NCBI GenBank assembly: GCA_902611135.1
Contig: CACLYL010000001.1
Span: 13,141 to 77,140 of the forward strand
Direction of reading: 5' to 3'
DNA: 64,000 bases
Source of the DNA: an uncultured Fidelibacterota bacterium
GTDB lineage: Bacteria; Fidelibacterota; Marinisomatia; Marinisomatales; UBA1611
Below the pieces are notes generated by a model, which saw nothing but the letters and a program-made list of their open reading frames with translations, was not told where the DNA came from and ran no database searches. The position numbers and the translations under genes are program-made. This document shows, piece after piece, positions 3,801-54,672 of the stretch (the first letter of the stretch is position 1; the number at the start of each line of letters is the position of its first letter).

Positions 3801-3810
3801 TGCTTGGTGA

Positions 3811-5054
3811 TTATTTTTCTAAAATTTCAATTAGTCCAACATCTTTTAAACAGTAAAATGATACATTTCTATTGTTAGACAAAAGAGCAGGCTTTGGATC
3901 ACTCTCGCATAAATAGTTATTATCTATAAATAGACCAGTTATTGATATTTTAAAAATATCAACTTCATAACATACATGATAAATAATTTAATTGTTCCTC
4001 TTTATATACTTTTATAAAAGAGAATTATGGTCAAGTGGTTTTACTAATTCCATTGATGGTAAATTATCTGATTCACATAATATAGATCTTACATTCTGAT
4101 TTAAATCAATATTCAAATCTTCTTTTATCTTGAAAATATTATCTGTTTTGTCTTGCCAATTAACTCTAAAAATCGAAATATCTTCCATTTTTATTAACAT
4201 ATTTGGATGTTTATCAAATACTTTTTTTGCAATCTCTTTGGTGTTTTTACTGCATACTGCGAGTATAGATCCTCTATTTTTTAGTTCAAGTATCCATTGT
4301 TGAATTTCTATGTAAATTTCTCCTAAACCTCCTCTACCTAAATCAATTCCATTGATTCCATCGTCCCCTAAGACACCACCCCATAAGGTATTATCTAAGT
4401 CAAGAATCAAGCATTTTTTCATTAGTCCAATATATGAGCAAATAATTTGAACTAAATTCTTTGAAATATAAGAGATTGTTTGAGTATTATATGCAAGTTT
4501 TGAATTGGAACATAACTTTTGATCAAACATCTTTTCACCAAAGATATTCTGAATGGATACTAAATCACAAATGAAAATATTTTGATTTTTTTGGAACAAA
4601 ACCATCAGACCTAGATTAATTTTTCTAATTTGACACAAAAAGGAAAAGGTGACTTTACTTGCATAATTCCCAAATACATTATTATCAATTTCATTGAAAT
4701 TATTTAGAATGATATTTGAACTAAATTCGGAATTTATGTTTTTGATTAGACTATGTATTTCATTTGAAATGTGAAAAAAATTTATCTCCCAATTCATAAC
4801 TGCAAAACTGGTTAAGAAGTTTTTGGGCGGAAAAATTTAAAAAAATATAGTCTGGCTTAAACTTATAAATTGAAGAATTGGTGTCAAAAATTTGTTTCTA
4901 ATATTTTTAAAATTAATCTATTTTTAATTCCATATGCTTTCAAACCCTAAACAAAGAATTGAGAGGTACTATCACTCAGTATGGCCAATTTTAATTTTTT
5001 ATAACTTTTTTCTAGTTTATTGAATTTTGACCTTAGCCTTATAATACTTTCCAT
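3811..5054 (-). pseudogene. FkbH-like HAD-IIIC phosphatase-family gene, disrupted by 3 in-frame stops and 2 homopolymer frameshifts
   Basis: The intact core ORF 4012-4797 contains the HAD motif I block LILDLDNTLWGGVLGDDG and LAVCSKN. An ATG at 5054 lies 7 nt after the upstream stop and opens MESIIRLRSKFNKLEKSYKKLKLAILSDSTSQFFV, which looks like an FkbH N-terminus. That frame hits TAG at 4947-4949. The frame is lost at the A5 run 4886-4890 and again at the A7 run 4774-4780 (plus-strand coordinates). After TAA 4012-4014 and TAA 3988-3990 the same frame stays open for 58 more codons, to TAA 3811-3813. Confidence 0.6.
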
Positions 5055-5060
5055 TATTTA

Positions 5061-6311
5061 TTAAGTCTTTCGCTCTTTTTTCCTAGCAGCTGGGAAAAGT
5101 ATGTTATTAAGAATTAACCTATAGCCCGCTGAGTTTCTATGAAGAGATAAATCGGTAGGCGGGTCTCCGACAAAGTGCTGGTAGTCTTCAGGATCATGAC
5201 CTCCGTAAAATGTAAATGTCCCCTTTCCAAAATTACCATGGATATATTTTACTTGGTCCGAAGCTGGATCCTCCCCCATGATCACGATATGTTTTTTTAT
5301 CTTTTTCTTATTAAATCCTGTAGTTTGTCCCATAAAACCTTTAATTGTTGCCGTATGATTCTGGGTGAGCATGGTAGGAACAGGGTCATACTTAGCAGAA
5401 AACTCAAATAGAGAAAAATAATCAGCATCAGCACCTTTCGATACAGGATTATTACTAGGTGGGAAGTCGATATCAGAAAATTCATAAATCATAGGGTCTG
5501 TAATGATTTTAAAGTCATGAAAAGCAAGTGATTTATTATAATCAATTTTCTTTTGAATGTTGTGATCAATCGGAGTCCCATCAAAAACTTTATGTGCTGC
5601 ATCATTATTATCTATTGCCAATGCAATATCATAGGAATCTGTTGCGGAACACATTGCGAATAAGAAGCCACCATTTCCGACATAATTCTTAATTTTTTTT
5701 GCTGTTGCTTTCTTTTGATCATGAACACTTTTATATCCAAGTGTAGATGCTACTAACTCAAACTGTTTTTTTTGATTTTTATACCATTGTGTGTTTCGAT
5801 GGCTTCTATAAAATTTTCCATACTGCCCCGTGAAATCTTCATGGTGAAGATGAAGCCAATCATAGTTTTGCAATTTCCCATAGTGTACATCTTCGTCCCA
5901 TAAAGTTTCATAATCAACTTCAGCATAGGTTAGCGCTAGGGTAACAGCGTCATCCCATGGCTGTTTATTTGGGGGAGTATAAATAGCAATTTTAGGTTTT
6001 TTTTCTAGTAGAATAATATCCATATTGTTTTGTTCAATAGTAGAATAAATATCAACGAGTTTACTTCCAGAAACATCTTCAAAAGAGACGCCTCTAATTT
6101 TACACTCATAGGTCAATATTTCGACTTCATCTACTAAAAAAGATCCGCCGCGATAATTAAGTAACCATTCAACATTGTGTCCTTTTGAAATAGAAAAGTA
6201 CGCAATACCATATGCTTTTAAATGGTCATTTTGAACATTATCCATTGGAATAATAATTTTTTGGGTTTGCACTAAATTTATTATAATTAAAAAGTAAAAA
6301 TATCTGATCAT
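5061..6311 (-). CDS. exported class-I glutamine-amidotransferase-like (DJ-1/PfpI/ThuA-type fold) protein, function unknown
   Basis: 416 aa with an N-terminal hydrophobic signal-like segment. It has a nucleophile-elbow-like GGFLFAMCSATD (Cys221, codon 5649-5651) and a late YGGHDPED motif (His372, Glu375) resembling the GATase HPE motif. From memory, homologues are often mislabelled asparagine synthetase B. This was not verified. Confidence 0.5.
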   Translation of the reverse strand: MIRYFYFLIIINLVQTQKIIIPMDNVQNDHLKAYGIAYFSISKGHNVEWLLNYRGGSFLVDEVEILTYECKIRGVSFEDVSGSKLVDIYSTIEQNNMDIILLEKKPKIAIYTPPNKQPWDDAVTLALTYAEVDYETLWDEDVHYGKLQNYDWLHLHHEDFTGQYGKFYRSHRNTQWYKNQKKQFELVASTLGYKSVHDQKKATAKKIKNYVGNGGFLFAMCSATDSYDIALAIDNNDAAHKVFDGTPIDHNIQKKIDYNKSLAFHDFKIITDPMIYEFSDIDFPPSNNPVSKGADADYFSLFEFSAKYDPVPTMLTQNHTATIKGFMGQTTGFNKKKIKKHIVIMGEDPASDQVKYIHGNFGKGTFTFYGGHDPEDYQHFVGDPPTDLSLHRNSAGYRLILNNILFPAARKKERKT

Positions 6312-8170
6312 AAATTTTTCTGTTCTAATTTTCTAATATGAAACCTTATTGGTTCCGAAAATACAGAGCTTGGATGTTCATTAATTATTCTTAAATATTG
6401 GGACTCAGCTTCATTGAACTTTTTTAATTTATATTCATAAATTTGTCCTGTTAATATTATTCCTCTATCTGCATAAACGCTATTTTCAAGACTCTGTGCA
6501 AATTTTAAAGACTGCTCAAACTTCCCTAATCTGTAATAGAGTAAACTTGCTCTTAGATTTATTAATGGTAATAATGGAGAATTTGGGTATACCATATCAA
6601 CATAATTTAATTCTGAAATGGCGGAAGCAACTTTTTGCTGTCGCAAATATTGTTCTGACTTAATGAATTTATTGAAAGCATTTATGTTAGTAGAATCTCC
6701 TTTTGAGAATTGCATGAGTATATTTTTAAGTTCCATTAGATCGTTAAAATCTTGGTTTAAGGGGTTTAATCCTAAAATTAGATCATTGATTTTATTAAGT
6801 GTAACTTTTGGAGGTTCATAAAGAAAATATACTAAAATCTTTTTCATATTTAGTCTGTGAGAATCTTGAAAATTTAATTTTCTATCTAAAAATGCAATAA
6901 CTTCATCAGATAGTCCCTTTGAAATCATTACATCTGCAATACGCTCAAAAATTTTTATCCTTAACTTCTCTTTTGGATTATGTTGTAAAGCTTTGTTCAA
7001 GAAGTTTAATGACTGATCAAAATCGTTTAAAATTCTGTATTGAATCTCTCCTAAGTTAAAATAGACCTCTGATGAAAGGTGTGAATTTGGTAGCGTAACT
7101 AAAAGGGAGTCATAAAGCTTAAGGCTTAATTTTAAATTTTCATGAGAAAATTCAGGGACTTCTATAAAGGGATTATGAAAGAAAATATTTTTATCAAAGA
7201 AATAAGGTATTAGATTTGTTTTTTCATATGGAATAATTTGACTCTCAAAAGTTTTTGCTAAACCATAGAGAGCCTTGCCAATGAGATTTCCATGTAATTT
7301 ATGGGCTAAGATGTAGTTGTATGCATTGATCGACAATTCAAATTGCTGCTCCTGTCTTAGTTGCTCCGCAAATTTAAACCAGCTGTTTATACTACTCCCA
7401 ATATACCCTGACCATTTTAACTTTGTGTCGTATGATTTTTGGTATTTTTGTTGTTTAAAATAAAACTCGCTTAATATGTTTAAAGCTATTTTAGGATCCG
7501 TTTTCTCTGCATTAATGAGTTTCTCTTCAATGATTGAAAGAGAAGTTTCATCATCGCTCATCATGAGTATCCTTCTTTCAATAATACTATTTTGATGTGG
7601 GTCATTTAGTAAATTGATCAAAAATTGATCCATGGCCTTACCAAAGTCACTTCTAGATTGATAATAGGTCCCTAATTCATAACTTAAAAATGACTCTCCA
7701 AATTGATCTCTTCCTACATTTAATAAAAATCTTATCTCATTATCTAGAATGAGGCGAAAATAAGTTGATAGCATTAATCTATAGAAAGGTTTTTGTTTTT
7801 TAAACTTTTCAATAGAGGATCTCCATAGCGAAATGGCTTCTACTTCTTGTTTATCAAGATAAAAAATTTCCCCAAGGTAGATGTAATTATCATAATCATT
7901 AGGGAACCTATTAATTCTAGCTTTTATAAATAAAATTCCCTCGCTATATAATTCTTGCTTTTTATAAATAGATTTTATATTTCTAATTGCTATTTTATTC
8001 GAAGGATCTTTTACTAATAAACTTTTATATATCGATATTGCTGATTCTACTTCATTCTTTTTTTCAAGCATTTTAGCTGTTTTTATCGAAGAGTTAATGG
8101 AGCGTTGATCAACTGCATAGAGCGAAGAAATAGAATATATTATCATGAGAATAAGCGCTTTATTCATCAT
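6308..8170 (-). CDS. TPR/helical-repeat protein with signal peptide
   Basis: 620 aa with N-terminal signal-like MMNKALILMIIYSISSLYA. Helix-pair repeats of about 34 aa recur throughout. It overlaps the neighbouring genes by 4 and 11 nt. Confidence 0.6.
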   Translation of the reverse strand: MMNKALILMIIYSISSLYAVDQRSINSSIKTAKMLEKKNEVESAISIYKSLLVKDPSNKIAIRNIKSIYKKQELYSEGILFIKARINRFPNDYDNYIYLGEIFYLDKQEVEAISLWRSSIEKFKKQKPFYRLMLSTYFRLILDNEIRFLLNVGRDQFGESFLSYELGTYYQSRSDFGKAMDQFLINLLNDPHQNSIIERRILMMSDDETSLSIIEEKLINAEKTDPKIALNILSEFYFKQQKYQKSYDTKLKWSGYIGSSINSWFKFAEQLRQEQQFELSINAYNYILAHKLHGNLIGKALYGLAKTFESQIIPYEKTNLIPYFFDKNIFFHNPFIEVPEFSHENLKLSLKLYDSLLVTLPNSHLSSEVYFNLGEIQYRILNDFDQSLNFLNKALQHNPKEKLRIKIFERIADVMISKGLSDEVIAFLDRKLNFQDSHRLNMKKILVYFLYEPPKVTLNKINDLILGLNPLNQDFNDLMELKNILMQFSKGDSTNINAFNKFIKSEQYLRQQKVASAISELNYVDMVYPNSPLLPLINLRASLLYYRLGKFEQSLKFAQSLENSVYADRGIILTGQIYEYKLKKFNEAESQYLRIINEHPSSVFSEPIRFHIRKLEQKNL

Positions 8171-11100
8171 TCCCCAATTGATCTAGTGAATTAAAATAGT
8201 ATTTTATCATATCCTGATGTTCTTTTGAATATCCAGCTCTCATAGCGCTATTTAATGCCTTTAAAGTTATACTTCTTCTTTGCCCTAAATCATTTGGTAA
8301 ACCACTAATGTTGCTTTTGATTATTTTTGTAGAAAAAACAGCTTTTCTTTCTTCTTTATAGTCTCTCTCAGTCATTGATAGTTGACTATCAAGCATTCTC
8401 GATAATATTTTTTCTTGTCTACTTTCTGTTTTTTTATTGAATCTTTTTCTTTGCAAGTCGTTAACTACATCATCAATATCTCTTTTAATTTCATTCATAT
8501 TTCCAAGACCATTTTGCTCACCAGACCCTTTCATCTCTTTTATTAATTGCTCTAATGTTTTTCCGATGCCTTTTTGTTTTTCTAACATTTCTCTCATTAT
8601 TTGGCTCTGCATTGAAGGATTCATTTGTCCTAAGCTTAATTGCATCCCTTGCTGGTTTAAACTTTGCTGCTGCTCGGACATTTTTTGCATCATTGATAAA
8701 AATTGCTCATAGCCGCTAGCAGAACCTGAATTTTGCATTTCTTGCATACTGTTAAATATTTCTAGAGCCGATTCATTTAAGCCTATAATAGCATTATTTT
8801 GATTTTCTTTAGCCATAATCAGGTTCTTATCTGTTAGATTCTTTTTGGCTTCTTGCATTCCATAATTTGCTTTGCCTATCGCACGTCCCATTTGAGGTGT
8901 TATTGAAAAGGTTTCTTTACTTAATTCAAGCATTTTTTGTGTAACGGACTGTAATTGATCTTGTAATAATTGCTGTCTGGATGCAAATTCACGTAGTCTG
9001 GGCGAATTTCGTGAAGATGACCTAATCTGAGATTGCAATTCTTCCTCCTGAGATGAAAGATAAAGAAGATCTTGCAAAATTGCTTGAAATCGACCACTCA
9101 TTTCCTCAACGGTTTGATTTTGAAACTCTTTTTTAATATTGCTCATAGCTTGATTCATCTTTTGGAGATTTTGCGTAGAATTAGCGGCTGATTGTTTTGT
9201 CAAATTCACATTTTTAATTGATAAACTTTTTATAGTCTCTTCTATATTTGAGAAAGTTTGGTTTGTATTATCGCTTTTTTTAAAATCTTTTAAATCAGTT
9301 GATGTCATTTTATTAAATGGTTCCGTCAATTGTTCTGCTTCGGAAATTAATGCTTTGATATTCTCTAACTCTTCCAAAACTCGTTTTTCTTCTTGCATTA
9401 ATCTTTGATTATCAACCAGCTCCTCGTTACGATTAATTTCATTTAACTTTTTGGATAAGGATTCTTGCTGTTTAAATAAACTTTCTATTCTTTTTTGTAA
9501 CTCATCCATCTTTTGTTCGGCTTGGAGCCTTTTAAAAACTTTTAAATATCGATCAAGGTCTTCCTGTATTTTATCCATGTTTTCTGCTAAACTATTGATC
9601 GCTTCGTTCAAAGCATCCATATTCATCTCCTCCATTGAGTCGGTTATGTTGTTGATGTTTTCAAACATATCTTCTGGCATAATATCTTTAATGAGTTCTG
9701 AAAGCTCATTAAATTTTCCTAATAAATCTTCAGAAAACAAATCATGCTTTTCTGCTTGTTCTGATACAGCTTCGATTGCTTCAGAAATCTCTTCAAGTTT
9801 TTTTAATTCAGCTTTAACCTTTTCAATAGAATTATTAATAGATTGCTTTTGTTCCCAAGTAAGTTCAGTAGTTTTTAAGGTTTCTAATTCGATATCCTTT
9901 AATTCGCTCTTAAGATCACTAATATTCTCTGATTCCTCTTTTAAATCTTCGATAAAATTACCTTCTAAAATTTCTGTTTCAGTATATAGATCAGCTAAGG
10001 ATGGTACTTTTGCGACAAACTTCTTTGAAGTGGTTTTTTTGGGTCCTGATACATCATCATTATCAGTAAGCTCAAAATAAAACTGTACTTCATCATCAGG
10101 CATTAAATTTAAATCAGTAAGTTCCCAATAGGTTTGAATTGTTTGTATGAGACTATCTAAGTGTAAATCTGAAATCTTTTTCATTGAAATAAAAGGTTCT
10201 ATGTTTAGGTACTTTGGGCGGTTGACTTGGTACCCAATTTGTAAAGAATTAAATCCAAAATCATCTTGCAGCTCTAAATCAATAAAGAGTGTTTGATCTG
10301 AACCGAGCTCAATATATTCTTTAGGTTCTTTTACGTAAAGCTGAGGATATTGATCCGGGATTAATTTAACTTTATATGGTATAGGATCTCTATTAGTAAT
10401 TCCTCTTTTATCAAATAAATTAACTGTAAACGAACTCTCCTCGTTGACAATAAAACTTCCTGTCGCAGATTTATTTTTGATTGACATTTCTATTTTATCG
10501 CTATTAAAACTAATATTTGCTGATTCTAAAATTCTATTTGACTCTAACTTAATATCAATCTGAGAACCTTTTAATGTTTCGATTGAAGATAAGTTGCCCT
10601 CTTGAATTGTTCTTGGAAGTCTCGAATATTTAGGTGGTTTAATAATAATTTCAAAGCTTTCAAAATCTGGTCTGTCAGTAACATATATTGTTTCAGGAAC
10701 TGAAGAAACTTGCTTCCAAGCTTCCCAGAAGTGCTCTGCTCTAACAACTGCAGTGTAGGAGTAATCTTGATATAATCTAGGAAGTTTAAATTGATAAATA
10801 CCATTAGAGTCTACAGATGAATAAAAATTTAGTTTTAAAGAGTCTCGAGCTTTTATAGACTCCTGGATCGGAGATAGTTCAAGTTCAACTGTATCGGGAG
10901 ATGAACCGAATGCTTTAATATCAATAATTGCAACTTCTCCTCCAAGAATATGAAGCTCTTCAGTTAGATTTATCAAAGAAAATGGCTTAGGGGCATAAAA
11001 TATTTCATCAACTTTTATTAACCTGTTAAAAGCATATTTTGAATCGTGATACCTTAACGAAAAAATAAAGATTGCGCATAGAGAAAATATTAGAAATATT

Positions 11101-11564
11101 TGTTTTAGCGATATAAGTCTATGGTTTTTAAACAAGTCTATTAGATTTGTATGAAATAAGGAGTTTGATATATCTTTTAAAAATAAATTTGCAAGTTGTT
11201 GTGATTCATTTGTTTTTAATGCAGTTTCAATCTGCAACGCATTAAGAATCTTATCGCTTTTATTAGGGTATAACTTTTCACCTAAAAATTTTGAAACTTG
11301 GCTTAGTTTATACTTTTCTATTTTACCATTTATCGCTTGTAGATACTGATATATGTACAGAATAAAAAAACTAATTATTGAGAGAATTAAAAATATTACA
11401 ATTTTCCTTTTAATGGCTGGTGTAAAATAAAAAATAGATTCAAATTGAATATAGAGTAAGAAAAACAATAAGTAAAATAACCCAATATATAGAAGACCAA
11501 TCATACCATCTTGCTTTAAAAGGAGCGATCTCGCTCGAATGATTGTGTGTTTAATATCCTTCAT
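8160..11564 (-). CDS. giant membrane-anchored protein: N-terminal TM helices, beta-rich middle, about 450-aa acidic/Gln-rich coiled-coil region (DUF4175-like)
   Basis: 1134 aa with hydrophobic helices near residues 20-75 and 150-170. A beta-rich segment ends in ELTDNDDVSGPKK. The E/K/Q/L-rich heptad-like region maps to roughly 8567-9962. The C-terminus is YSKEHQDMIKYYFNSLDQL. The DUF4175 assignment is from memory and was not searched. Confidence 0.5.
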   Translation of the reverse strand: MKDIKHTIIRARSLLLKQDGMIGLLYIGLFYLLFFLLYIQFESIFYFTPAIKRKIVIFLILSIISFFILYIYQYLQAINGKIEKYKLSQVSKFLGEKLYPNKSDKILNALQIETALKTNESQQLANLFLKDISNSLFHTNLIDLFKNHRLISLKQIFLIFSLCAIFIFSLRYHDSKYAFNRLIKVDEIFYAPKPFSLINLTEELHILGGEVAIIDIKAFGSSPDTVELELSPIQESIKARDSLKLNFYSSVDSNGIYQFKLPRLYQDYSYTAVVRAEHFWEAWKQVSSVPETIYVTDRPDFESFEIIIKPPKYSRLPRTIQEGNLSSIETLKGSQIDIKLESNRILESANISFNSDKIEMSIKNKSATGSFIVNEESSFTVNLFDKRGITNRDPIPYKVKLIPDQYPQLYVKEPKEYIELGSDQTLFIDLELQDDFGFNSLQIGYQVNRPKYLNIEPFISMKKISDLHLDSLIQTIQTYWELTDLNLMPDDEVQFYFELTDNDDVSGPKKTTSKKFVAKVPSLADLYTETEILEGNFIEDLKEESENISDLKSELKDIELETLKTTELTWEQKQSINNSIEKVKAELKKLEEISEAIEAVSEQAEKHDLFSEDLLGKFNELSELIKDIMPEDMFENINNITDSMEEMNMDALNEAINSLAENMDKIQEDLDRYLKVFKRLQAEQKMDELQKRIESLFKQQESLSKKLNEINRNEELVDNQRLMQEEKRVLEELENIKALISEAEQLTEPFNKMTSTDLKDFKKSDNTNQTFSNIEETIKSLSIKNVNLTKQSAANSTQNLQKMNQAMSNIKKEFQNQTVEEMSGRFQAILQDLLYLSSQEEELQSQIRSSSRNSPRLREFASRQQLLQDQLQSVTQKMLELSKETFSITPQMGRAIGKANYGMQEAKKNLTDKNLIMAKENQNNAIIGLNESALEIFNSMQEMQNSGSASGYEQFLSMMQKMSEQQQSLNQQGMQLSLGQMNPSMQSQIMREMLEKQKGIGKTLEQLIKEMKGSGEQNGLGNMNEIKRDIDDVVNDLQRKRFNKKTESRQEKILSRMLDSQLSMTERDYKEERKAVFSTKIIKSNISGLPNDLGQRRSITLKALNSAMRAGYSKEHQDMIKYYFNSLDQLGNDE

Positions 11565-12208
11565 TGCGTAAGAGCATAATATATTATATTGACACCCATC
11601 TTTAAAGCAGCTTCTCTAATTGGCCAAGGATTTTTATGAACATTTGAGTCCTCCCAGCCATCACCTAAGTCTGATTCATACGTATAAAGAACAATCATTC
11701 TCTCTTTTTCAAATAATGCTAGTGCTTGAGCAGGTTTATTGTCATGTTCGTGTATTTTTGGCAAGCCACCAGGTATATTAAAGTATGATTTAAATATAGG
11801 ATGATCATCCGGTAGGCTAATGAACTTTTTACTAGGGAAAACCTTTTTCATTTCTCTTCTAAATGATTTATCCATCCCATAATTATCATCTGCGTGTAAA
11901 AAGCCTCCATTGAGTAAAGACGACCTTAATGCAATAACCTCTTTATTTGAAAGTTTAATGTTTCCATGTCCATTTAAATACATATATGGATATTGATTTA
12001 AATTTTCAGCAGTTAACTTAATTCTAACCTCATCATCATGAACAGACATAGGTGTATTTGATTTCACATAATTTAGAAGGTTAGGTAAACTGCTGGCATT
12101 ACTGTACCAGTCGCCGCCTCCACTGTAATGGATTCGTGCGATACTGAACGATTGAGCTGTAAGATTTACGAGTAAACCCAAACTTATTATGATACTTTTA
12201 ATGTTCAA
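11561..12208 (-). CDS. DUF4159-like secreted protein
   Basis: 215 aa with a signal peptide, followed by ARIHYSGGGDWYSNASSLPNLLNYV. This matches my recollection of the DUF4159 N-terminal motif. It overlaps the downstream giant gene by 4 nt. Confidence 0.6.
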   Translation of the reverse strand: MNIKSIIISLGLLVNLTAQSFSIARIHYSGGGDWYSNASSLPNLLNYVKSNTPMSVHDDEVRIKLTAENLNQYPYMYLNGHGNIKLSNKEVIALRSSLLNGGFLHADDNYGMDKSFRREMKKVFPSKKFISLPDDHPIFKSYFNIPGGLPKIHEHDNKPAQALALFEKERMIVLYTYESDLGDGWEDSNVHKNPWPIREAALKMGVNIIYYALTQ

Positions 12209-12317
12209 AATAATTTTTAAATGATAGTTTAAATTTTAAAAAAGAATGGTAAAATTTAGGAAAGAATTTGTAAGTATCTCTTTTATAAAATAGTTTATAG
12301 TTAAAGTTAGCATAATT

Positions 12318-14171
12318 ATGTATTCTAATAGATTAAAATATTATATTATTGTTCTAATTACAATATCATTATCAAAAGGCTACGATCAACTGATAATAAA
12401 AAAACCTCTATTGTTTCAGAGCCCTTTCAATAAACGAGATTCTGAAAATTATGAAAGTGGGTATGTTTTAAATAAATTGCTTTTTAATCGACAATTTTCA
12501 CATCCAATAACTAGAATTCCCATCGAAATTCGATATGGAATAGGATTTGATGGGAAGACTGCAGGATCTTTTTCTAAAATAGATACTAATTCTTTTGCTC
12601 AAGATCAATCTAAAATAAAATATGCAGAAAATGTAGAGACTCGAATTAATCAAAAATTTGAAAACATCTTTGGATCTTCCTTAGAAATTGACTTTGGACT
12701 GTTGAATATACCGTATTATTTGACCAAAACGAGCTGGTTAAATGTGTTAACTGGCTTTTCATATAGGCAAAGCAAACTTTTTTATCCAGCAGAGGTGCCC
12801 TATGATGAGTGGACTTTTGATAATTCAAATTGGAGTGATAAATTTTACTTTTCTCCCGCATTAAAAGAGTACTTTTTGACCACACATTTTCAATATCAAC
12901 CTTTTAATAATTGGTATTTTAATGTAAGATATTCATACGGACTAGCTAGTGCGAAATTTTATTCTCCAGACAGAGAAGTCACTAGCTCAGTACCTAGTGG
13001 TAAAGGAACCTCTGCTGCAGGAGCTTTAGGAGTTCGTTTTATTTTAGATCCAGGTAAATTAAACCGTTTTACAGTAGGAATGGATTTAAGAAGATCTTAT
13101 ACGAAAATTCATACTATAAATGATCCTAAAGATATAACACCAATAAAAAGCTTCGTTTTACCAAACTGGGGATTATATTTTACTTTATCTGCGTTTTATG
13201 GTGGTAAAAAAACAAGCGGAGATATAGCAAAAAATCAATATTATAAAAAAGATTATATAAACTCTTTGGATACTTTTAAAAAATTCATATCTGAACACCC
13301 AAAACATTCAAATAGATATCGTGCTGAAAATTATATTAAAAAATGTGAGTTTAAGATACCATATCAAATCATGCAAGAAGGTATTGAATACGAGGAAGAG
13401 GCAAAAACCCAAAAAGCTTTAGAAAAATATATTTTTGCTAGATCTCAAGTAAAAAAGGATTCGATAATATCAATGGCCTTAAACAAAAGGATTAATCAGA
13501 TAGCGATTTTATGGTTAGTTGAGGCAGAAAATCTTTTAAATAAGGGTAATTATTACCAAGCGTATAACTTGGTTAAATTAGTTTCGGAATTTTCTGAAAA
13601 AGGAATGAAAGAATTGAGAAGATTTAAATCTTGGGTAGTTTTATCAGAGGGGATATTATATCAAAATGAAAATTTTATTGGTAAAGCTATGAAAACCTAC
13701 TCTGAAGCTTTAAAACTGAACCCAGATTTAATTTTTGAAGTAAAATCTTTACAATATAAAGCAGGGATACAAATGGTTAACCTTGCTAATAAATCGGATG
13801 AAATTGATGAGATTCAATTAGCAATTTATTCTTTAGAATATGCAAAGGAATTATCTGGTGGAATAGGGAAAAAAAATGAGGAGTTATTAGCGGATTTAAA
13901 GAAAAAGATACAATTATTTGATTATCATAAAACCCAATCAATAATAAATGAAAGAATGGATAGGGCAAGAGAATATCAAAATTTAGCTCGAACAGAAAAA
14001 TTAAAGATAGGACAAACTATTCCTGAGGTCCAAAATTTACTTGGTGATCCCCATGAAAAAATATCATCAGGCTTAAATCAACAACAGCAGTTATGGATTT
14101 ATTTTTTAGTTGACCATACTTTACATTTAACTTTTGATAATTACCGACTTTTTAAAATAGAGCAGATTTGA
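12318..14171 (+). CDS. envelope protein: N-terminal beta-barrel-like region, helical-repeat (TPR/BamD-like) region and C-terminal BamE/SmpA-like module
   Basis: 617 aa. Residues about 60-300 show alternating aromatic/polar beta-strand patterns (YFNVRYSYGLASAKFY, NWGLYFTLSAFYGG). The middle is helical-repeat. The C-terminus IGQTIPEVQNLLGDPHEKI...LWIYFLVDHTLHLTFDNYRLFKIEQI resembles SmpA/OmlA. Confidence 0.4.
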   Translation: MYSNRLKYYIIVLITISLSKGYDQLIIKKPLLFQSPFNKRDSENYESGYVLNKLLFNRQFSHPITRIPIEIRYGIGFDGKTAGSFSKIDTNSFAQDQSKIKYAENVETRINQKFENIFGSSLEIDFGLLNIPYYLTKTSWLNVLTGFSYRQSKLFYPAEVPYDEWTFDNSNWSDKFYFSPALKEYFLTTHFQYQPFNNWYFNVRYSYGLASAKFYSPDREVTSSVPSGKGTSAAGALGVRFILDPGKLNRFTVGMDLRRSYTKIHTINDPKDITPIKSFVLPNWGLYFTLSAFYGGKKTSGDIAKNQYYKKDYINSLDTFKKFISEHPKHSNRYRAENYIKKCEFKIPYQIMQEGIEYEEEAKTQKALEKYIFARSQVKKDSIISMALNKRINQIAILWLVEAENLLNKGNYYQAYNLVKLVSEFSEKGMKELRRFKSWVVLSEGILYQNENFIGKAMKTYSEALKLNPDLIFEVKSLQYKAGIQMVNLANKSDEIDEIQLAIYSLEYAKELSGGIGKKNEELLADLKKKIQLFDYHKTQSIINERMDRAREYQNLARTEKLKIGQTIPEVQNLLGDPHEKISSGLNQQQQLWIYFLVDHTLHLTFDNYRLFKIEQI

Positions 14172-28099: not shown

Positions 28100-29203
28100 T
28101 CAATAATTATAAATTAACATTATTTTAGCAGTTGAGCCAAAACTTTCAAGTCCAGATGACACAATAACTGGTAAATATTCATCGCGTTTTGGATTTATAG
28201 AAAAAATATAATTTAGGCTGAAATTATCATATGCTGAGCTCCAGCGTAAAAAATTATAACTTTTTTTCTCATTTAGACTTACTTGTTTTATTATACTTAA
28301 TTGATGTGTCATGCCAAATGGAATAGCAGCTAGGATTGCACTGTAGTTCTGATTTGATTTAATTGGTCTTTGTTGTTGAATGGACATGAATTCAGTCATT
28401 AAGTATATTCCATTGATGATGGGTAGGGTGTAATCCAATCCTAAAGTGGCTATTATTTGTTTTAGATTACTAGATGAGATAGCAGAACCTTCATTCCAAA
28501 ATCCAAAAAAACCATCATATCTATAATCTAATCCCCACCTAGTAATCTCATCATTATGGTAAGATATTGCCCATTCTCCTGAATAGTGAGATATTTCAGA
28601 TCGAAAGCCAAAAGACAAATTGTTGAGTTCATTTAATATTGACCATGACCATATTGAGATTGTATTCATCGGGAACCATTTTAATCTGAATGCTCTCACA
28701 CCACTAATTTGTCCAGTGGGATCAGTAACATCAATATAATCAAACCAGGAAAGGTTCCGTAATATTTGTGTTGGCCCAAAAGTTATTTTTTGTAAACCTA
28801 ATCTAGCTTCAAGTTTTTCATTAGAGTATCTTATCCAATACCTGTAAGGTATTCCGTGTCTAGTGTCATATTCTATGCTTTTTTTGAATACGCTAACTTT
28901 AATTGTATCAAGATTTACCATCGATCTTCCAGAATAGACATGGTCGACTATATGGGCATATTCAAAATCAATTAATTGGTCATCAGTTAATTTATTAAAA
29001 ACAGAAAAGGTTGCTATTGTTCCAAATTTTGATTCGAAATGAGAATCATTTTCTGGGATATCATTACCTGTTAAAATGCTATACCATAACTGTCCTTTTA
29101 AAGAATAATTTTGAGAATAAAGAATATTGCTAAATAGAAGTATTGAAATAATATATGTTAAACGATATTTTGCTTTATTAAAAGTTTGTTTCAAAAAAAA
29201 CAT
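28100..29203 (-). CDS. predicted outer-membrane beta-barrel protein, unknown family
   Basis: 367 aa with a signal peptide. Alternating aromatic/polar strands run throughout. The C-terminus is an aromatic beta-signal-like KIMLIYNY. Confidence 0.5.
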   Translation of the reverse strand: MFFLKQTFNKAKYRLTYIISILLFSNILYSQNYSLKGQLWYSILTGNDIPENDSHFESKFGTIATFSVFNKLTDDQLIDFEYAHIVDHVYSGRSMVNLDTIKVSVFKKSIEYDTRHGIPYRYWIRYSNEKLEARLGLQKITFGPTQILRNLSWFDYIDVTDPTGQISGVRAFRLKWFPMNTISIWSWSILNELNNLSFGFRSEISHYSGEWAISYHNDEITRWGLDYRYDGFFGFWNEGSAISSSNLKQIIATLGLDYTLPIINGIYLMTEFMSIQQQRPIKSNQNYSAILAAIPFGMTHQLSIIKQVSLNEKKSYNFLRWSSAYDNFSLNYIFSINPKRDEYLPVIVSSGLESFGSTAKIMLIYNY

Positions 29204-38151: not shown

Positions 38152-41100
38152 TTGATTAGAAATGATTACATCCGTTTGAATCGCTTGATAGCCACAATAG
38201 TTTTTCTAGTTTCTTTCATAGTTTATTATGATACAATGGCTCCCACCGTATCATATTGGGACTGTGGTGAATTCATTGCTGTATCTCACACTCTTGGAGT
38301 CCCTCACCCTCCAGGAAGTCCTTTTTTCTTGTTACTAGGAAGAATAGCTTCAATGTTGCCAATAACTGAAGATATAGCTTTCAGAGTTAATTTACTTTCG
38401 CCCATCTCAAGTGCATTTGCTGTAATGTTTTTGTACTTAGTGATTGTATTGCTAGTTGCTAATTGGAAGGGGGGAATAAAAAATTATCAAGATTCATTAG
38501 TTTCTTTTGGTGGAGGAGTAATTGGCTCGTTAACTTTTGCATTTACAGATAGTCACTGGTTCAACGCAGTTGAAGCAGAAGTGTATGCTTTTAGCACTTT
38601 TTTTACTGCAATAGTAGTATGGTTGATTTTGAAATGGCATGAGAAAGCCGATGAAATTGGGAATGAGAGATATATCTTAATAATTGCCTATATGATTGGT
38701 TTAGCTACGGGCCTTCACTTATTAAATCTATTGGCAATCCCTTTTATTGCCTTAATTATTTATTTTAAAAAGTATGAATTTAATTGGAAAACCTTTGGGT
38801 ATACAGTCATAATAACAGGAATAGTCTTTTTTCTAATACATAATGTTATTATAAAAGGGATGCCTAAAATTGCAGACTCTATTGGGGTATGGGGTGCAGC
38901 CTGCTTAGTATTATCAGTGTTTGTATTTATGATATGGGCAATCAAAAATCAAAAGTTAATACTTTCACTATCGTTGACTTCAATGGTATTAATTTTGATT
39001 GGATATAGTACATATGCACTAATATTCATCCGTTCAAATCAAGATCCAGGAATTGATGAAAATGACCCCGAGACCATTGAAGCATTCATATCATATTTAG
39101 AGAGAGAACAATATGGAGACGTTGGTATTTTGCCTAGGAGATTTAATGAAATACCTCCAATCCATGAAGTTGTAGGTTACCCAGAAGGCAAAAATCGTGA
39201 GTTTTCATCATCTCAAGAGGCCAAATATAGGAAATATGAATCGGGGAAACAGTTGAGTTACTTTTGGAATTATCAAGTAAAAAAAATGTATAACCGATAC
39301 TTTTTATGGCAATTTGCAGGTAGAGGGCCCTCTAAAGAATCTCATTTAAGGATGGGTGCTAATTCAAGAGAGGATGGCGTTGATTTAACTCAATTTGGTC
39401 TACCACTTGCTTTCATACTAGGGATTATAGGGATCTTATATCATGCGAGCAAAGATCAAAAGATGGCGTTTTCTGTACTATCACTCTTTATAATGACTGG
39501 TTATGCTATTATTATATATTTAAACCAAGATGATCCCCAGCCTAGAGAACGTGATTATTCTTATGTTGGTAGTTTCTTTGCTTTTGCTATTTGGGTGGGA
39601 CTTGGTTCTGTTGCTATAAGCGAAAAAGTAATTGAAAAAATAAAAAATATTGAACTAGCTAAAAGACTCGTCTTAATTCTGATAGTTTTACAACTGATCT
39701 TTGTCCCTTTTGTAATGGCCAAGGCAAATTATCATTCACATGATCGGTCTGGTAATTTTGTTGCCTGGGACTATAGTTATAACCTTTTACAGTCAGTGGG
39801 CCCGAATGGTGTTATTTTTACAAATGGAGATAATGATACTTTCCCACTTTGGTATCTACAGGAGGTTGAAAAGTTAAGAACAGATGTTGCTGTTGTTAAC
39901 TTAAGTCTATTGAATACTCCCTGGTATATTAAGCAATGGAGAGATAAAAGGGAAAAAGGGAAGGAGTTTATTACTCTTTCAGATTTTCAAATTGATGATT
40001 TAACATCAAAGTTAACCCGATGGGAAAAACAAAATGTTCAAATACCAGTAAAAAATGATCCACTAAATGAGGATGGTTATATTGAATGGGAAATGAAACC
40101 CACATATGGAGGTCAAGCACTTCGTGTCCAAGACATGATGATTATGAGAATAATTAATGATGCTAAATGGCGAATTCCAATATATTTTGCAGTTACGGTA
40201 TCACAACAAAATAGAATTGGCCTAGACCGTTACTTAGATATGCAAGGATTGACATTTCAATTAAAAAGTCATGAAACTGAACCAATTGATACAGAAAAAA
40301 TGTATGAAAATTTGATGACTGATGTCGGACCAAAAGATTGGTCTACCAATTTTAATCATGATGTGTTTTATAATGATGATACAGCAGGTTATTTAAACTG
40401 GTCAAAGAATTTTCAATCAGGCTATATGTTTAGAAATTTAGGCAATAAAAATGTTTACTTTAACGATCAAACAAAACGCTTGCTTCAGAATTATCGTAGT
40501 GCATACATGCAGCTTGCAGTTACTTACTATATGGATTATCAAAGAATAGATAGAAGGAAGAAAAATAGAGATGAAAATTTACTATCTTCATTGAAGACAA
40601 AAACGATCGATGTTTTAAAGAAAATGGAAGAAAACATTCCCAGCGAAACTATTCCTATTCAATCGGAAGATTTACATTATCAAGTAGCTAGGATATATGG
40701 AGACCTTGATGAAAAAAACTTAATGAAAGAAATTATTGAAGATCTTGTTGCAAGAAAAAATGGGAAGCCAGTAAATAGAGTTGAATACGCGAACACACTT
40801 TATCAAGAACTAAGTGATCCAGATAAAGCAATTGATATTCTAGAAGAAATGCGGAGCGAATTTCTACAAATAGAAAGTATCTTAAGTATAAAAGGTTTCG
40901 ATAAAAACTTTATATCACGAAGAAGATGGAATCAATGGCAAAAGGCCTATCCTGAAGTTGTTAATTCACTGGTTTATATATATAGAAAAAACGGCAGAAA
41001 TTTTGATGCTGAAATAGTTCTATCTGATTGGGTTTTGAGAAACCCCAAAGACACAAATGCTCAAGAAATACTTGAACAAATTCGTTCCGGTAAAAAGTAA
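38152..41100 (+). CDS. DUF2723 (TMEM260-like) GT-C fold glycosyltransferase with C-terminal helical-repeat domain
   Basis: 982 aa. The N-terminal motif YWDCGEFIAVSHTLGVPHPPGSPFF is characteristic of DUF2723. About 11 or more TM helices are followed by a large soluble C-terminal region with TPR-like repeats. SD GAGGT lies at 38142-38146, before TTG 38152. Confidence 0.7.
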   Translation: MIRNDYIRLNRLIATIVFLVSFIVYYDTMAPTVSYWDCGEFIAVSHTLGVPHPPGSPFFLLLGRIASMLPITEDIAFRVNLLSPISSAFAVMFLYLVIVLLVANWKGGIKNYQDSLVSFGGGVIGSLTFAFTDSHWFNAVEAEVYAFSTFFTAIVVWLILKWHEKADEIGNERYILIIAYMIGLATGLHLLNLLAIPFIALIIYFKKYEFNWKTFGYTVIITGIVFFLIHNVIIKGMPKIADSIGVWGAACLVLSVFVFMIWAIKNQKLILSLSLTSMVLILIGYSTYALIFIRSNQDPGIDENDPETIEAFISYLEREQYGDVGILPRRFNEIPPIHEVVGYPEGKNREFSSSQEAKYRKYESGKQLSYFWNYQVKKMYNRYFLWQFAGRGPSKESHLRMGANSREDGVDLTQFGLPLAFILGIIGILYHASKDQKMAFSVLSLFIMTGYAIIIYLNQDDPQPRERDYSYVGSFFAFAIWVGLGSVAISEKVIEKIKNIELAKRLVLILIVLQLIFVPFVMAKANYHSHDRSGNFVAWDYSYNLLQSVGPNGVIFTNGDNDTFPLWYLQEVEKLRTDVAVVNLSLLNTPWYIKQWRDKREKGKEFITLSDFQIDDLTSKLTRWEKQNVQIPVKNDPLNEDGYIEWEMKPTYGGQALRVQDMMIMRIINDAKWRIPIYFAVTVSQQNRIGLDRYLDMQGLTFQLKSHETEPIDTEKMYENLMTDVGPKDWSTNFNHDVFYNDDTAGYLNWSKNFQSGYMFRNLGNKNVYFNDQTKRLLQNYRSAYMQLAVTYYMDYQRIDRRKKNRDENLLSSLKTKTIDVLKKMEENIPSETIPIQSEDLHYQVARIYGDLDEKNLMKEIIEDLVARKNGKPVNRVEYANTLYQELSDPDKAIDILEEMRSEFLQIESILSIKGFDKNFISRRRWNQWQKAYPEVVNSLVYIYRKNGRNFDAEIVLSDWVLRNPKDTNAQEILEQIRSGKK

Positions 41101-41114
41101 TTGCTTTTAATGAT

Positions 41115-42164
41115 TTGGTAAAAGTAATTCCAAAAGTTTCAATAATTATTCCTCATTGGAATGGAATAGAAACTCTTTCAGAATGTTTGGATTCTATAAT
41201 CTGTAGCGATTTTAAATCTTATGAAGTTATTGTATCTGACAATAATTCCACTGATGGAAGTCAAGATTGGATAAGAAAGAATCATCCCGATGTAATATTA
41301 ATCGAAAATAAAAGTAATTACGGATATGCAGGAGGATGTAACAAAGGAGCTAAAATTGCAAAGGGCAATTACCTTTTGTTTTTGAATAATGATACTATTC
41401 AAGATTCAGGTTGGTTAGAACCAATGATTGAACTATTTGAAAAAGACAAAAAGATTGCTGCTGTTCAACCTAAAATACTGAACTATTATGATAAAAATAT
41501 TTTTGATTATGCAGGTGCTTGTGGCGGACACATTGATATTTTATCTTATCCTTTTGCCAGGGGGAGGATATTCCTGCGGCAAGAGGTAGATAAAGGGCAA
41601 TATAATAATGCTGAAGAATGCTTTTGGGCTTCCGGGGCAGCTATTATGATTAGGAAAAGTATCTTTTACTCATCTGGAGAATTTGATGAAACTTTTTTTT
41701 CTCACATGGAAGAGATCGATTTATGTTGGCGTTTTTATGCAATGGGATATAAAGTCTGGGTTGAACCGAAATCTGTTGTATATCATAAAAATGCTATATC
41801 ATTGCCAATGAATTCTCAAAAAAAATATTATTTAAATCATAGAAATTCACTCATTATGACACTTTCTAATTATACTCTCTTTCGATCGTTTTATTTAGGT
41901 TTAATTCGGATTACATTTGAGTTAGTATCAATTATTTATACTATTATAAAATTAGATTTTAGGCATACCTGGGGGATCATCAAGGCATTAGGATGGATTA
42001 TACTTCACCCAGTAAATATTCTAAAAAAGAGATCTAGGTTTAAAAGGATAAGAAAAGAAAAAGATGAATTAATTATGAAAAGTATGTTAAGAAGAAGCAT
42101 CGTTTTTGAACACTTTTTATTAAAAAAAGATAACTATTCAAAATTACTTTCTAAAGCTTGTTGA
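41115..42164 (+). CDS. family 2 glycosyltransferase with hydrophobic C-terminal segment
   Basis: VSIIIPHWNG, DNNSTDGS, GCNKGA, FLNNDT (DxD-like) and FFSHMEEIDLCWR. Residues about 250-300 are hydrophobic (LIMTLSNYTLFRSFYLGLIRITFELVSIIYTII). Confidence 0.85.
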   Translation: MVKVIPKVSIIIPHWNGIETLSECLDSIICSDFKSYEVIVSDNNSTDGSQDWIRKNHPDVILIENKSNYGYAGGCNKGAKIAKGNYLLFLNNDTIQDSGWLEPMIELFEKDKKIAAVQPKILNYYDKNIFDYAGACGGHIDILSYPFARGRIFLRQEVDKGQYNNAEECFWASGAAIMIRKSIFYSSGEFDETFFSHMEEIDLCWRFYAMGYKVWVEPKSVVYHKNAISLPMNSQKKYYLNHRNSLIMTLSNYTLFRSFYLGLIRITFELVSIIYTIIKLDFRHTWGIIKALGWIILHPVNILKKRSRFKRIRKEKDELIMKSMLRRSIVFEHFLLKKDNYSKLLSKAC

Positions 42165-53631: not shown

Positions 53632-54158
53632 AATCAGACCACAATAATATTAAAATGATTATATCTGACGTTGATGGAGTTTGGACAGATGGAAGCATCT
53701 ATATTGGAAAAAATGGCGATGAAATGAAAAAGTTTAGTGTTTTAGATGGAGTAGGGGTAGCATTGGCAAAAGTTGCAGAATTAAAAATAGTTCTTTTATC
53801 AGGAAGGTTTTCAAATGCGACTGAAAATAGAGCAAAAGAGCTAGGAATCAACGAAGTGTTTAATGGTTTTTTAAATAAATTAACGATTTATGAGAAATTA
53901 AAACAAGAATATAAATTGAAAGACGACCAAATAGTATACATTGGAGATGATTTAATTGATATACCAGTTATGAAAAAAGTTGCCTTTCCTGTTTCAGTTT
54001 CAAATGCAACTCAGGAAGTAAAAGACATATCAGTTTTTATAACTAATTCATGCGGAGGTGAAGGGGCTTTTAGAGAAGTTGTAGAATGGATATTAGATAA
54101 AAAAGGCAAATTAAAACGTACTATTTCTACATTAAATAAAAATGTTAAAAAATTGTAA
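53628..54158 (+). CDS. kdsC: Kdo 8-phosphate phosphatase (HAD-IIIA)
   Basis: DVDGVWTDG (HAD motif I) and GDDLIDIPVM (motif IV). Confidence 0.85.
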   Translation: MKSDHNNIKMIISDVDGVWTDGSIYIGKNGDEMKKFSVLDGVGVALAKVAELKIVLLSGRFSNATENRAKELGINEVFNGFLNKLTIYEKLKQEYKLKDDQIVYIGDDLIDIPVMKKVAFPVSVSNATQEVKDISVFITNSCGGEGAFREVVEWILDKKGKLKRTISTLNKNVKKL

Positions 54159-54672
54159 TTATTTAAACTGGTTAATTTTAATCTTTGTTTCATGTTCTGA
54201 ATTAACAGAGATTGAACCCTTTCCTATTGATAATATTCCAGATCAAGAAAGTTGGGAAGCAATTATAATATTAACAAGTAAAGGTAAAATGAGAGCTAAA
54301 ATACAATCGGAACATTTGGAAAAGTATAATGAAAAGTCACATATCCTCTTAGATACTAATGTGACTGTTGATTTTTTTGATCAAGATGAAAGGCACACTT
54401 CTACTTTAACTTCGGATGCAGCTGAAATTGATCAAAAAACTAATAATATGAAAGCAAGGGGTAATGTGGTGGCAATTTCAGATAGTGGAATTACATTATT
54501 TTCTGAAATTTTGTTTTGGGATTCTAAGAGAGAAAAATTATATACTGAGACAAACATAATGATTACTACATTAGAAAACGATACTTTATTTGGTACTGGC
54601 TTTGAATCAAATTCAAATTTAAAGAATTGGAAGATTTTAAATCTATCAGGAGTATCAGGAGTTGTTTATTGA
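54142..54672 (+). CDS. lptC: LptC-like LPS export periplasmic protein
   Basis: 176 aa with an N-terminal anchor and a beta-jellyroll-like sequence. It lies between kdsC and lptB. Confidence 0.6.
   Translation: MLKNCNYLNWLILIFVSCSELTEIEPFPIDNIPDQESWEAIIILTSKGKMRAKIQSEHLEKYNEKSHILLDTNVTVDFFDQDERHTSTLTSDAAEIDQKTNNMKARGNVVAISDSGITLFSEILFWDSKREKLYTETNIMITTLENDTLFGTGFESNSNLKNWKILNLSGVSGVVY

Follow-up and report, generated by a model that had tools for sequence, protein, structure and literature searches.

A 64-kb stretch of DNA from an uncultured Fidelibacterota bacterium (GenBank assembly GCA_902611135.1, contig CACLYL010000001.1, positions 13,141 to 77,140), here called the window and with a G+C content of ∼30% over its whole length, carries on its minus strand a four-gene operon whose products, P1 to P4, are the subject of this report. 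The four open reading frames (ORFs) are intact and chained by overlaps of 4, 11 and 4 nucleotides (nt), with the junction letters ATGA at P1/P2, ATGATGAATAA at P2/P3 and ATGA at P3/P4. Near-identical proteins carry source names of marine Candidatus Neomarinimicrobiota (Marinimicrobia/SAR406). Hydropathy and AlphaFold2 (AF2) models show a signal-like hydrophobic N terminus in P1, P3 and P4 and three hydrophobic helices in P2. Export and transmembrane calls were made with our own hydropathy scan and by inspection. An earlier, sequence-only reading had described four intact minus-strand genes with these overlaps, translationally coupled and encoding extracytoplasmic products that all bear a signal peptide or transmembrane helices. 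The ORF coordinates, junction sequences and hydrophobic segments agree with it, and its factual statements about the sequence were all correct. The genes are as follows (lengths in amino acids, aa).

11561–12208, minus strand: P1, an exported DUF4159 protein of 215 aa (Pfam PF13709, PDB 4i66, hydropathy).
8160–11564, minus strand: P2, a giant DUF4175 membrane protein of 1134 aa (PF13779, AF2); its ATG overlaps the P1 stop codon by 4 nt.
6308–8170, minus strand: P3, an exported tetratricopeptide repeat (TPR) protein of 620 aa (Pfam TPR matches); it overlaps the P2 stop codon by 11 nt.
5061–6311, minus strand: P4, an exported protein of 416 aa with a GATase1-like fold (AF2, Foldseek); it overlaps the P3 stop codon by 4 nt (ATGA).

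The families that had been guessed from the letters alone held up in database searches. P1 matches the full DUF4159 domain (206 bits against a cut-off of 25.9, profile positions 2–202 of 202). P2 matches DUF4175 with 78.8 bits against a cut-off of 27.3 over residues 302–992, a match that covers only profile positions 184–761 of 825. P3 scores above the cut-offs of TPR_2 (35.6 bits), TPR_6 (33.3 bits) and TPR_14 (28.2 bits) and is also matched by TPR_12, and P4 is GATase1-like by its AlphaFold model. The literature searched describes a biochemical function for none of P1–P4, as had been supposed for all four families.

The gene order is conserved well beyond this organism. For 80 genome loci that contain a P4 homologue, we compared the ORFs with iterated local hidden Markov models (HMMs) of P1–P4. 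The order P1-P2-P3-P4 occurs on one strand at 14 of the 80 loci: in Marinimicrobia and close relatives (L001–L004, L006, L007), at L018, L029 and L048 (metagenome-assembled genomes) and L079, and in Latescibacterota (L033, a complete chromosome), Krumholzibacteriota (L038) and Eisenbacteria (L057, L060). Three more loci (L017, L022, L031) hold P2-P3-P4, and P2 orthologues are found at 17/80. In L033 and L038, the third gene encodes a TPR protein by Pfam as well. An order shared by many related genomes cannot be put down to chance. P3 is the commonest neighbour of P4 elsewhere, lying upstream of it at 47 of the 80 loci, and its orthologues mostly score 350–700 bits with the P3 HMM, well over generic TPR similarity. 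P3 and P4, in Ignavibacteria-type loci with clpX between them, are the more widespread of the two pairs. The module looks like two separable pairs, P1-P2 and P3-P4, joined in some lineages. The only other conserved neighbours of P4 are ClpX in those Ignavibacteria-type loci and a fumarylacetoacetate-hydrolase-like gene (10 loci, named by its N-terminal motif alone); both linkages are probably housekeeping.

In Latescibacterota, the module lies next to MoxR and DUF58 genes. The complete chromosome (L033) reads DUF4159-DUF4175-TPR-P4-MoxR-DUF58, with 208 bits for MoxR (AAA_3) and 166 bits for DUF58. At two further loci of this phylum (L022, L013) MoxR is separated from P4 by at most one gene, and L022 has DUF58 next after MoxR. 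Plasmid 1 of Gemmatirosa kalamazoonensis (L083), found when P1 was run by tblastn against plasmid records, carries a related cluster. Its order is a 958-aa protein with DUF4159 at the C terminus, MoxR, DUF58, a protein combining BatA_N and VWA_2 with a weak GATase1_like match, and a DUF4175 protein of 1268 aa that scores 286 bits with the P2 HMM; P3 and P4 are not found within 30 kb. Both cases agree with the statement, in the sequence-only reading, that DUF4159 and DUF4175 proteins usually keep company with MoxR, DUF58 and vWA (Bat-type) genes. That reading had also found MoxR, DUF58 and vWA missing from operon and window alike, and our searches concur: Pfam, a motif scan and phmmer detected no MoxR (AAA_3), DUF58, VWA or BatA gene in the window. 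Pfam was run on every listed ORF of 100 aa or more except 54142–54672, while phmmer compared MoxR, DUF58 and BatA seeds with every open frame of at least 70 aa; the Gemmatirosa BatA-vWA seed gave nothing at E ≤ 1. What did not survive is the picture of a separate envelope system set apart by the lack of these genes, as the same families join MoxR-DUF58 in Latescibacterota and Gemmatirosa. Because the Latescibacterota module adjoins MoxR-DUF58 and the Gemmatirosa pair flanks MoxR-DUF58-BatA/vWA, the operon is best read as a variant of the MoxR/Bat-type envelope clusters and not as an independent system.

The likeness to MoxR-DUF58-BatA/vWA clusters lies in DUF4159 and DUF4175 as a membrane/periplasmic pair and in the contiguity with MoxR-DUF58 in Latescibacterota. 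In contrast, the window has no MoxR, DUF58, BatA_N or vWA, adds a TPR protein and P4, and encodes DUF4159 as a free 215-aa exported protein instead of the C terminus of a 958-aa protein as in Gemmatirosa. The cmdA-D/RL3499-RL3502 operon of Rhizobium leguminosarum reportedly has the same make-up, going by the domains of RL3501 and RL3502. Rhizobium mutants are reported to have envelope-integrity and morphology defects (cited in PMC5700661 and PMC3893208). In Rhodobacter, CenR, a regulator of the envelope and of division, has among its direct targets a TIGR02302 (DUF4175-type) gene and a MoxR gene (PMC9275681). The Bacteroides aerotolerance cluster BatI (MoxR, DUF58, BatA, BatB, the TPR protein BatC, BatD and BatE) is likewise a multi-protein envelope cluster with a TPR component, membrane-anchored proteins with large periplasmic parts, a MoxR-DUF58 link and no defined biochemistry. 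However, our operon has no match to the BatA/BatB vWA or to BatD (PF13584), and DUF4159, DUF4175 and P4 fall outside the described Bat set.

P4 belongs to a very large family that has no Pfam or NCBIfam model. Searched as a single sequence or as a 21-sequence profile, it matched nothing in Pfam, NCBIfam or PDB sequences. None of 21 family members matched the GATase, Peptidase_C26 or DJ-1_PfpI models even at E ≤ 10, and four of them gave weak BPL_N matches at that threshold. A word-indexed search returned at least 8000 close homologues; clustering at 50% identity splits the family into 1510 groups within a set of 1.84 billion representatives, and a one-genome-per-species collection contains at least 597 stretches that match it. 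Members occur in Neomarinimicrobiota, Latescibacterota, Calditrichota, Ignavibacteria, Kapabacteria, Bacteroidota, Cloacimonadota, Zixibacteria, Eisenbacteria and Krumholzibacteriota. Defining the family would improve the annotation of thousands of genomes. Homologues of 394–423 aa in Spirosoma (P0398, P0402, P0404, P0405) are named ‘asparagine synthetase B’ by NCBI/UniRef, a label that is probably a propagated misannotation because an AsnB-type domain was not detected in the family.

The AF2 model of P4, built from a 70-sequence alignment, has a mean predicted local distance difference test score (pLDDT) of 93.8 and a predicted TM-score (pTM) of 0.92. Foldseek matched it to class I glutamine-amidotransferase-like folds only in the PDB (probability 1.0, E 5e-6 to 1e-3): STM3548 (2gk3), STM1381 (3soz), the GH42 β-galactosidase middle domain, lacto-N-biose phosphorylase and the γ-glutamyl hydrolase SpuA (7d53). 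On this predicted structure, P4 is class I glutamine amidotransferase-like at the level of the fold. In the Pfam clan description, GATase1_like is grouped with the GH42 middle domain as a sub-cluster of the glutaminase clan, and the structural neighbours of P4 fall there; the clan also takes in DUF4159 on structural grounds (PMC4702930). P4 shares its predicted fold with GATase1-like hydrolases (C26 SpuA/PuuD; C56 PfpI/DJ-1; PF07090, STM3548/GH42 middle domain) but has no membership among them at the sequence level, and TM-scores to them are only 0.25–0.35. It further differs in an extra N-terminal α/β subdomain (aa 18–105), insertions at aa 160–195 and 233–300, Sec-type export and a C-terminal KKxxKT-COOH tail. 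Sequence homology between P4 and DUF4159 was considered and rejected, hhalign aligning only 16 columns at the GGFL elbow with a probability of 24%. The Gemmatirosa BatA-GATase1_like protein fared no better as a relative of P4 (hhalign probability 0.3%). As far as profile comparison can tell, P4 and DUF4159 have only the fold class in common, with no detectable homology.

Three features of P4 stand out in an alignment of 105 homologues from many phyla and in the C termini of the family.

5649–5651, minus strand: codon of Cys221, the putative nucleophile, in the motif GGFLFAMCSATD (conservation, secondary structure).
5187–5198, minus strand: His372-Asp373-Pro374-Glu375 (GGHDPED), after strand 364–369, with the putative triad His and Glu (conservation, AF2).
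5064–5084, minus strand: the tail RKKERKT-COOH, a member of the KKxxKT-COOH ending (C termini of homologues).

Cys221 is kept in 103 of the 105 homologues and sits in the AF2 model exactly between strand 216–220 and helix 222–232, the nucleophile-elbow position. His372 (101/105), Asp373 (100/105), Pro374 (102/105) and Glu375 (99/105) are nearly as constant, and so are His157 and Asp159 (104/105 each) and His319 (99/105). The HPE motif of classical triad amidotransferases likewise follows a strand. As in Cys-His-Glu triad enzymes, the elbow Cys is followed much later by a His-x-x-Glu after a strand, and Cys221, His372 and Glu375 may form such a triad. The putative Cys-His-Glu hydrolase suspected in the sequence-only reading is consistent with these near-invariant residues and with the predicted fold, and P4 is a probable cysteine amidohydrolase on the same grounds.

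Nearly all P4 homologues carry a Sec-type signal that ends just before a conserved K(I/L)LIPMD strand. Tat export, which would have hinted at a cofactor, was rejected: a loose RR pattern occurs in ∼6/105 homologues, and the rest look Sec-type. At the other end, 88 of 90 homologues without a long C-terminal extension finish in a Lys/Arg-rich heptad ending in KT-COOH (KKKKQKT, RKKERKT). Homologues that lack this ending, in some Bacteroidota, have a type IX secretion system (T9SS) sorting domain in its place; Por_Secre_tail was found in 7 of 21 P4 representatives, and NCBI names the tailed proteins ‘T9SS type A sorting domain-containing protein’. The window's own P4 has no Por_Secre_tail or C-terminal sorting domain and ends in RKKERKT. 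No TPR neighbour lies beside the two T9SS-tailed homologues whose contigs were examined. The Sec signals and the T9SS tails of homologues indicate that P4 acts outside the cytoplasm. Because the T9SS domain replaces the tail, and because two T9SS-tailed homologues are without a TPR neighbour, these patterns suggest that the KKxxKT tail is a localisation signal, perhaps read by the co-conserved TPR protein P3. KKxxKT-COOH may be an unrecognised localisation or TPR-binding signal. TPR receptors such as PEX5 for PTS1 and Hop for EEVD offer an analogy only, that of a TPR protein co-conserved with a partner of near-invariant C terminus; they differ in that the P4 tail is basic (KKxxKT) and not SKL or EEVD, and in that the setting is periplasmic.

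The supposed scaffold of the module, P2, divides into four regions.

11055–11555, minus strand: N-terminal membrane region, aa 4–170 (hydropathy peaks, AF2 secondary structure).
10005–10982, minus strand: β-sandwich array, aa 195–520, with ∼3 immunoglobulin (Ig)/macroglobulin (MG)-like domains (AF2 strands, Foldseek).
8727–9998, minus strand: helical stalk, aa 523–946, 12 helices of 11–63 residues, rich in E, K, Q and L (AF2, composition).
8178–8714, minus strand: C-terminal part, with a Q/M/G-rich segment (aa 951–1090) and two terminal helices (aa 1093–1129) (AF2, conservation).

In the membrane region, aa 4–45 and 49–78 form long hydrophobic helices, aa 87–144 a helical loop and aa 148–170 a third transmembrane helix; from the model we infer that the loop is cytoplasmic. 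The β region resembles, in Foldseek, the tandem MG/Ig-like arrays of complement C3/C5 and α-2-macroglobulin, with E about 1e-6 and a poor (high) root-mean-square deviation. The AF2 model of P2 is of moderate local quality (pLDDT 72.9), and pLDDT falls below 50 over aa 951–1026 and 1054–1090. Conservation across phyla is low and peaks at aa 481–510 and 1051–1075, outside the inferred cytoplasmic loop. The segment aa 481–510 (L.P...DN....GP), within the β array, is the best conserved across phyla, and aa 1053–1061 form the conserved block ILSRMLDSQ. A coiled coil of ∼450 aa, as the sequence-only reading had it, gives way in the AF2 model to about 12 helices of 11–63 residues. The helical part is segmented, and a folded stalk is therefore likelier than a single 450-residue rod; the model suggests a folded stalk or bundle, for which spanning the periplasm is plausible.

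The alphaproteobacterial DUF4175-type equivalog TIGR02302 (cut-off 394 bits) does not match P2 at E ≤ 0.01; it scores 9 bits on the Gemmatirosa protein and does not match those of L033 and L038. AdvA, a division protein of Acinetobacter baumannii, resembles P2 in having a DUF4175 annotation next to two transmembrane helices, but the paper describes the annotation as lying near the N terminus of a much smaller protein (PMC7481262), whereas the match in P2 is to profile positions 184–761. AdvA was rejected as a guide to P2 function: the annotated region differs, and a transfer of function is unjustified.

P1 has a signal-like N terminus, MNIKSIIISLGLLVNLTAQS, and matches PDB 4i66, itself of unknown function, at E=5e-8. 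Across 11 orthologues from several phyla the motifs YxGGGDWY, GHG and PKxHEHD are invariant, and so is an Asp-Asp at the would-be nucleophile position (GGFLHADD). Because this invariant Asp-Asp replaces the nucleophile, P1 is unlikely to be a Cys hydrolase. A DUF4159 gene with 46% identity to P1 also turned up beside a dihydrofolate reductase gene on the Corynebacterium crudilactis plasmid pCRULAC1 (L082, 11983–13170). It lies inside a resistance island with aph, aac and sul2 that is bordered by IS26 and ISVsa3, and the segment looks like a captured chromosomal fragment from an unrelated donor, possibly of the Fibrobacterota–Chlorobiota–Bacteroidota (FCB) type.

For P3, one apparent shortcut to its partnership with P4 was discarded. 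A 1070-aa ORF joining the two (L016, 8000–11212) is an artefact in which a run of masked N bases spans the junction of two genes. For this species, a separate TPR protein of 625 aa is on record in the database, and a fused homologue was not found. Masked stretches in the genome collection can thus yield false fusions.

Taken together, these observations lead us to favour, by a modest margin of confidence, the view that P1–P4 constitute a conserved extracytoplasmic FCB module, a variant of the MoxR-associated (Bat/Cmd-type) systems that would comprise a DUF4175 scaffold, a DUF4159 partner, a TPR adaptor and a cysteine amidohydrolase. P2 would be the scaffold, anchored by its three helices in the inner membrane, with its Ig-like array and helical stalk reaching into the periplasm. 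P1, a GATase1-like protein made non-catalytic by Asp-Asp in place of the nucleophile, would be its dedicated partner, as in MoxR clusters elsewhere. P3 would act as an adaptor that holds P4, possibly through a TPR groove that binds the Lys-rich KT-COOH tail. Catalysis would fall to P4, as a cysteine amidohydrolase whose target would be an amide or peptide bond in some component of the envelope. Where MoxR and DUF58 occur, they would work from the cytoplasm to build or reshape the complex; here, their genes would be either absent or unlinked to the operon. Maintenance of the envelope is the most likely physiological role.

Several findings count against this view. Adjacency to MoxR-DUF58 was seen at only three loci, all in Latescibacterota, and many P4 loci, in Bacteroidota and Kapabacteria, have neither P1-P2 nor P3 nearby. 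T9SS-tailed P4 homologues must work at the cell surface. The structural matches of P4 are weak (TM-score 0.25–0.35 normalised to the query, 0.44–0.55 on small targets), the global model of P2 is poor (pTM 0.38), and the supposed P3-P4 fusion dissolved into masked bases. The idea that the cytoplasmic loop of P2 is a conserved docking site for MoxR was also dropped, the loop not being conserved across phyla. Given the P4 loci without P1-P2 or P3 and the surface-directed T9SS forms, P4 does not obligatorily need P2.

The main rival holds that two independent units are merely co-transcribed, P3-P4 as an exported enzyme with its TPR protein and P1-P2 as a MoxR-type scaffold pair, and that no four-protein complex forms. 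The ∼30 loci with P3-P4 or P3-ClpX-P4 without P1-P2 are what it predicts, as are the Gemmatirosa DUF4159 and DUF4175 genes, which accompany MoxR-DUF58-BatA without P3 or P4 within 30 kb, and the T9SS-tailed P4 homologues that stand alone or amid other T9SS cargo. Nonetheless, at least four named phyla have retained the full order together with its stop–start overlaps. Moreover, P1 and P2 occur only upstream of P4 and always with P3, though this count comes from P4-anchored loci and is blind to P1-P2 pairs elsewhere. We regard two independent units as possible and somewhat unlikely.

A different doubt concerns catalysis. P4 might be a non-catalytic GATase1-like scaffold or binding module, in the manner of ThuA, the GH42 middle domain, DUF4159 or the BatA-type GATase1-like domain, and the operon a tether or sensor. 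Its closest structural matches (STM3548 and the GH42 middle domain) are non-catalytic or uncharacterised, its partner P1 is without a nucleophile, and the conserved His-rich HxHHED (154–159) could be a metal or ligand site. Such a module would hardly explain why each of Cys221, His372 and Glu375 persists in at least 94% of the 105 aligned homologues, which is hard to account for without catalysis or metal binding, and the T9SS-exported forms resemble typical secreted enzymes. A non-enzymatic P4 is thus quite improbable.

Still less can be said for the module as an accessory of type IX secretion or gliding machinery, which we consider very improbable. The idea draws on the Por_Secre_tail domains among P4 representatives, on T9SS cargo neighbours in L022, L031, L007 and L086 and a PorZ-like propeller gene upstream in L033, and on an FCB distribution that parallels that of T9SS. 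However, a T9SS tail marks P4 as cargo and not as a component, P1–P4 match no known Gld, Spr or Por family in Pfam or NCBIfam, and the T9SS-related neighbours differ between loci. Chance adjacency, against which the sequence-only reading had proposed a check of gene order, is ruled out by the recurrence of the order across several FCB phyla, and together with unreal reading frames it retains next to no probability in the face of strong family scores, thousands of homologues, conserved order and confident structure models.

As an observation in its own right, T9SS-related genes lie near P4 or the module at L033 (2251–4476), L022 (467–3727), L007 (919–3321) and L086 (6352–11807). They are of several types, namely a PorZ-like propeller, a CHU_C-tailed protein, a gingipain-like C25 peptidase and Por_Secre_tail proteins, and none is a consistent partner.

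MoxR/Bat/Cmd-type clusters are widespread and have envelope, stress or aerotolerance phenotypes, and a biochemical activity has been assigned to none of them. The module described here ties the DUF4159-DUF4175 pair to a candidate enzyme with a clear putative active site (C221, H372, E375) and a possible C-terminal signal, and its carriers include the abundant marine Marinimicrobia as well as many other FCB phyla. A more ambitious version of the preferred scaffold-and-amidohydrolase model, speculative and on balance doubtful, makes P4 the founding member of a new family of cysteine amidohydrolases exported by Sec. KKxxKT-COOH would then be a targeting or retention signal that is read by P3 and interchangeable with the T9SS tail of Bacteroidota, and the enzyme would be delivered to the DUF4175/DUF4159 scaffold. 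If true, this would provide the first candidate catalytic effector for the long-enigmatic MoxR/Bat-type envelope clusters. Should the model be wrong, a well-delimited conserved operon would still stand.

Two further features flank the four genes.

4012–5054, minus strand: remnant of an FkbH-like pseudogene with in-frame stops and frameshifts, truncated at its 3′ end (Pfam/NCBIfam matches, frames).
12209–12317, strand not assigned: presumed promoter region of the operon, AT-rich, 109 nt, in the divergent intergenic space between P1 and a plus-strand gene for a 617-aa protein (ORF coordinates, sequence).

Downstream of P4, an ATG at 5054 is the 7th base past the P4 stop codon (5063–5061), in agreement with the earlier remark that a fifth frame starts 7 nt after the fourth stop; the frame ends after 35 codons. 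Similarity to FkbH_N and HAD-IIIC resumes in other frames (ORF 4012–4797) and ends early, and the FkbH model (TIGR01686) scores 106.6 bits, under its cut-off of 146.65, over profile positions 2–104 of 323. The gene is decayed, as the sequence-only reading had said, but its place as a fifth member of the operon did not stand. Two loci with the same flanks as the window (L001 and L004; holB-M23-617aa on one side, MazG-YbeY-7TM-HD on the other) have MazG directly after P4 and no FkbH gene between. A third locus of 96–97% DNA identity (L081, 16409–16684) shares the first ∼170 nt after P4 and has ∼30 nt in place of window positions 3803–4886 (1084 nt). Because it is absent from two of these loci and mostly deleted in the third, the remnant is no member of the module; by this comparison it is strain-specific debris that is being lost in this sublineage. 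On the L081 contig (ENA ERZ28548091, 1.22 Mb), many housekeeping genes, namely metG and those for the M23 peptidase, rRNA adenine dimethylase, 7TM-HD receptor and 617-aa protein, are each split into at least two calls. The window versions are intact, and the splits may be assembly frameshift errors.

Scans of the window for σ70 promoters and terminators gave counts equal to those in shuffled sequence and were uninformative, and Rfam and tRNA scans of the window were empty. The divergent gene (12318–14171, plus strand) encodes a 617-aa exported protein that matches nothing in Pfam or NCBIfam. It lies upstream of an M23 peptidase (EnvC/NlpD-like), holB and metG, and is found beside the operon only in Marinimicrobia-type loci (L001, L004, L006).

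Elsewhere in the window, two more ORFs have no Pfam match: one of 367 aa (28100–29203, minus strand) flanked by a LolCDE-like ABC system and an MMPL transporter, and one of 251 aa (61411–62166, minus strand) directly downstream of ABC-2 transporter genes. Finally, positions 38152–42164 (plus strand) encode a 982-aa homologue of TMEM260-like protein O-mannosyltransferases (226 bits) followed by a family 2 glycosyltransferase, a pairing that hints at protein O-glycosylation in this Marinimicrobia lineage.

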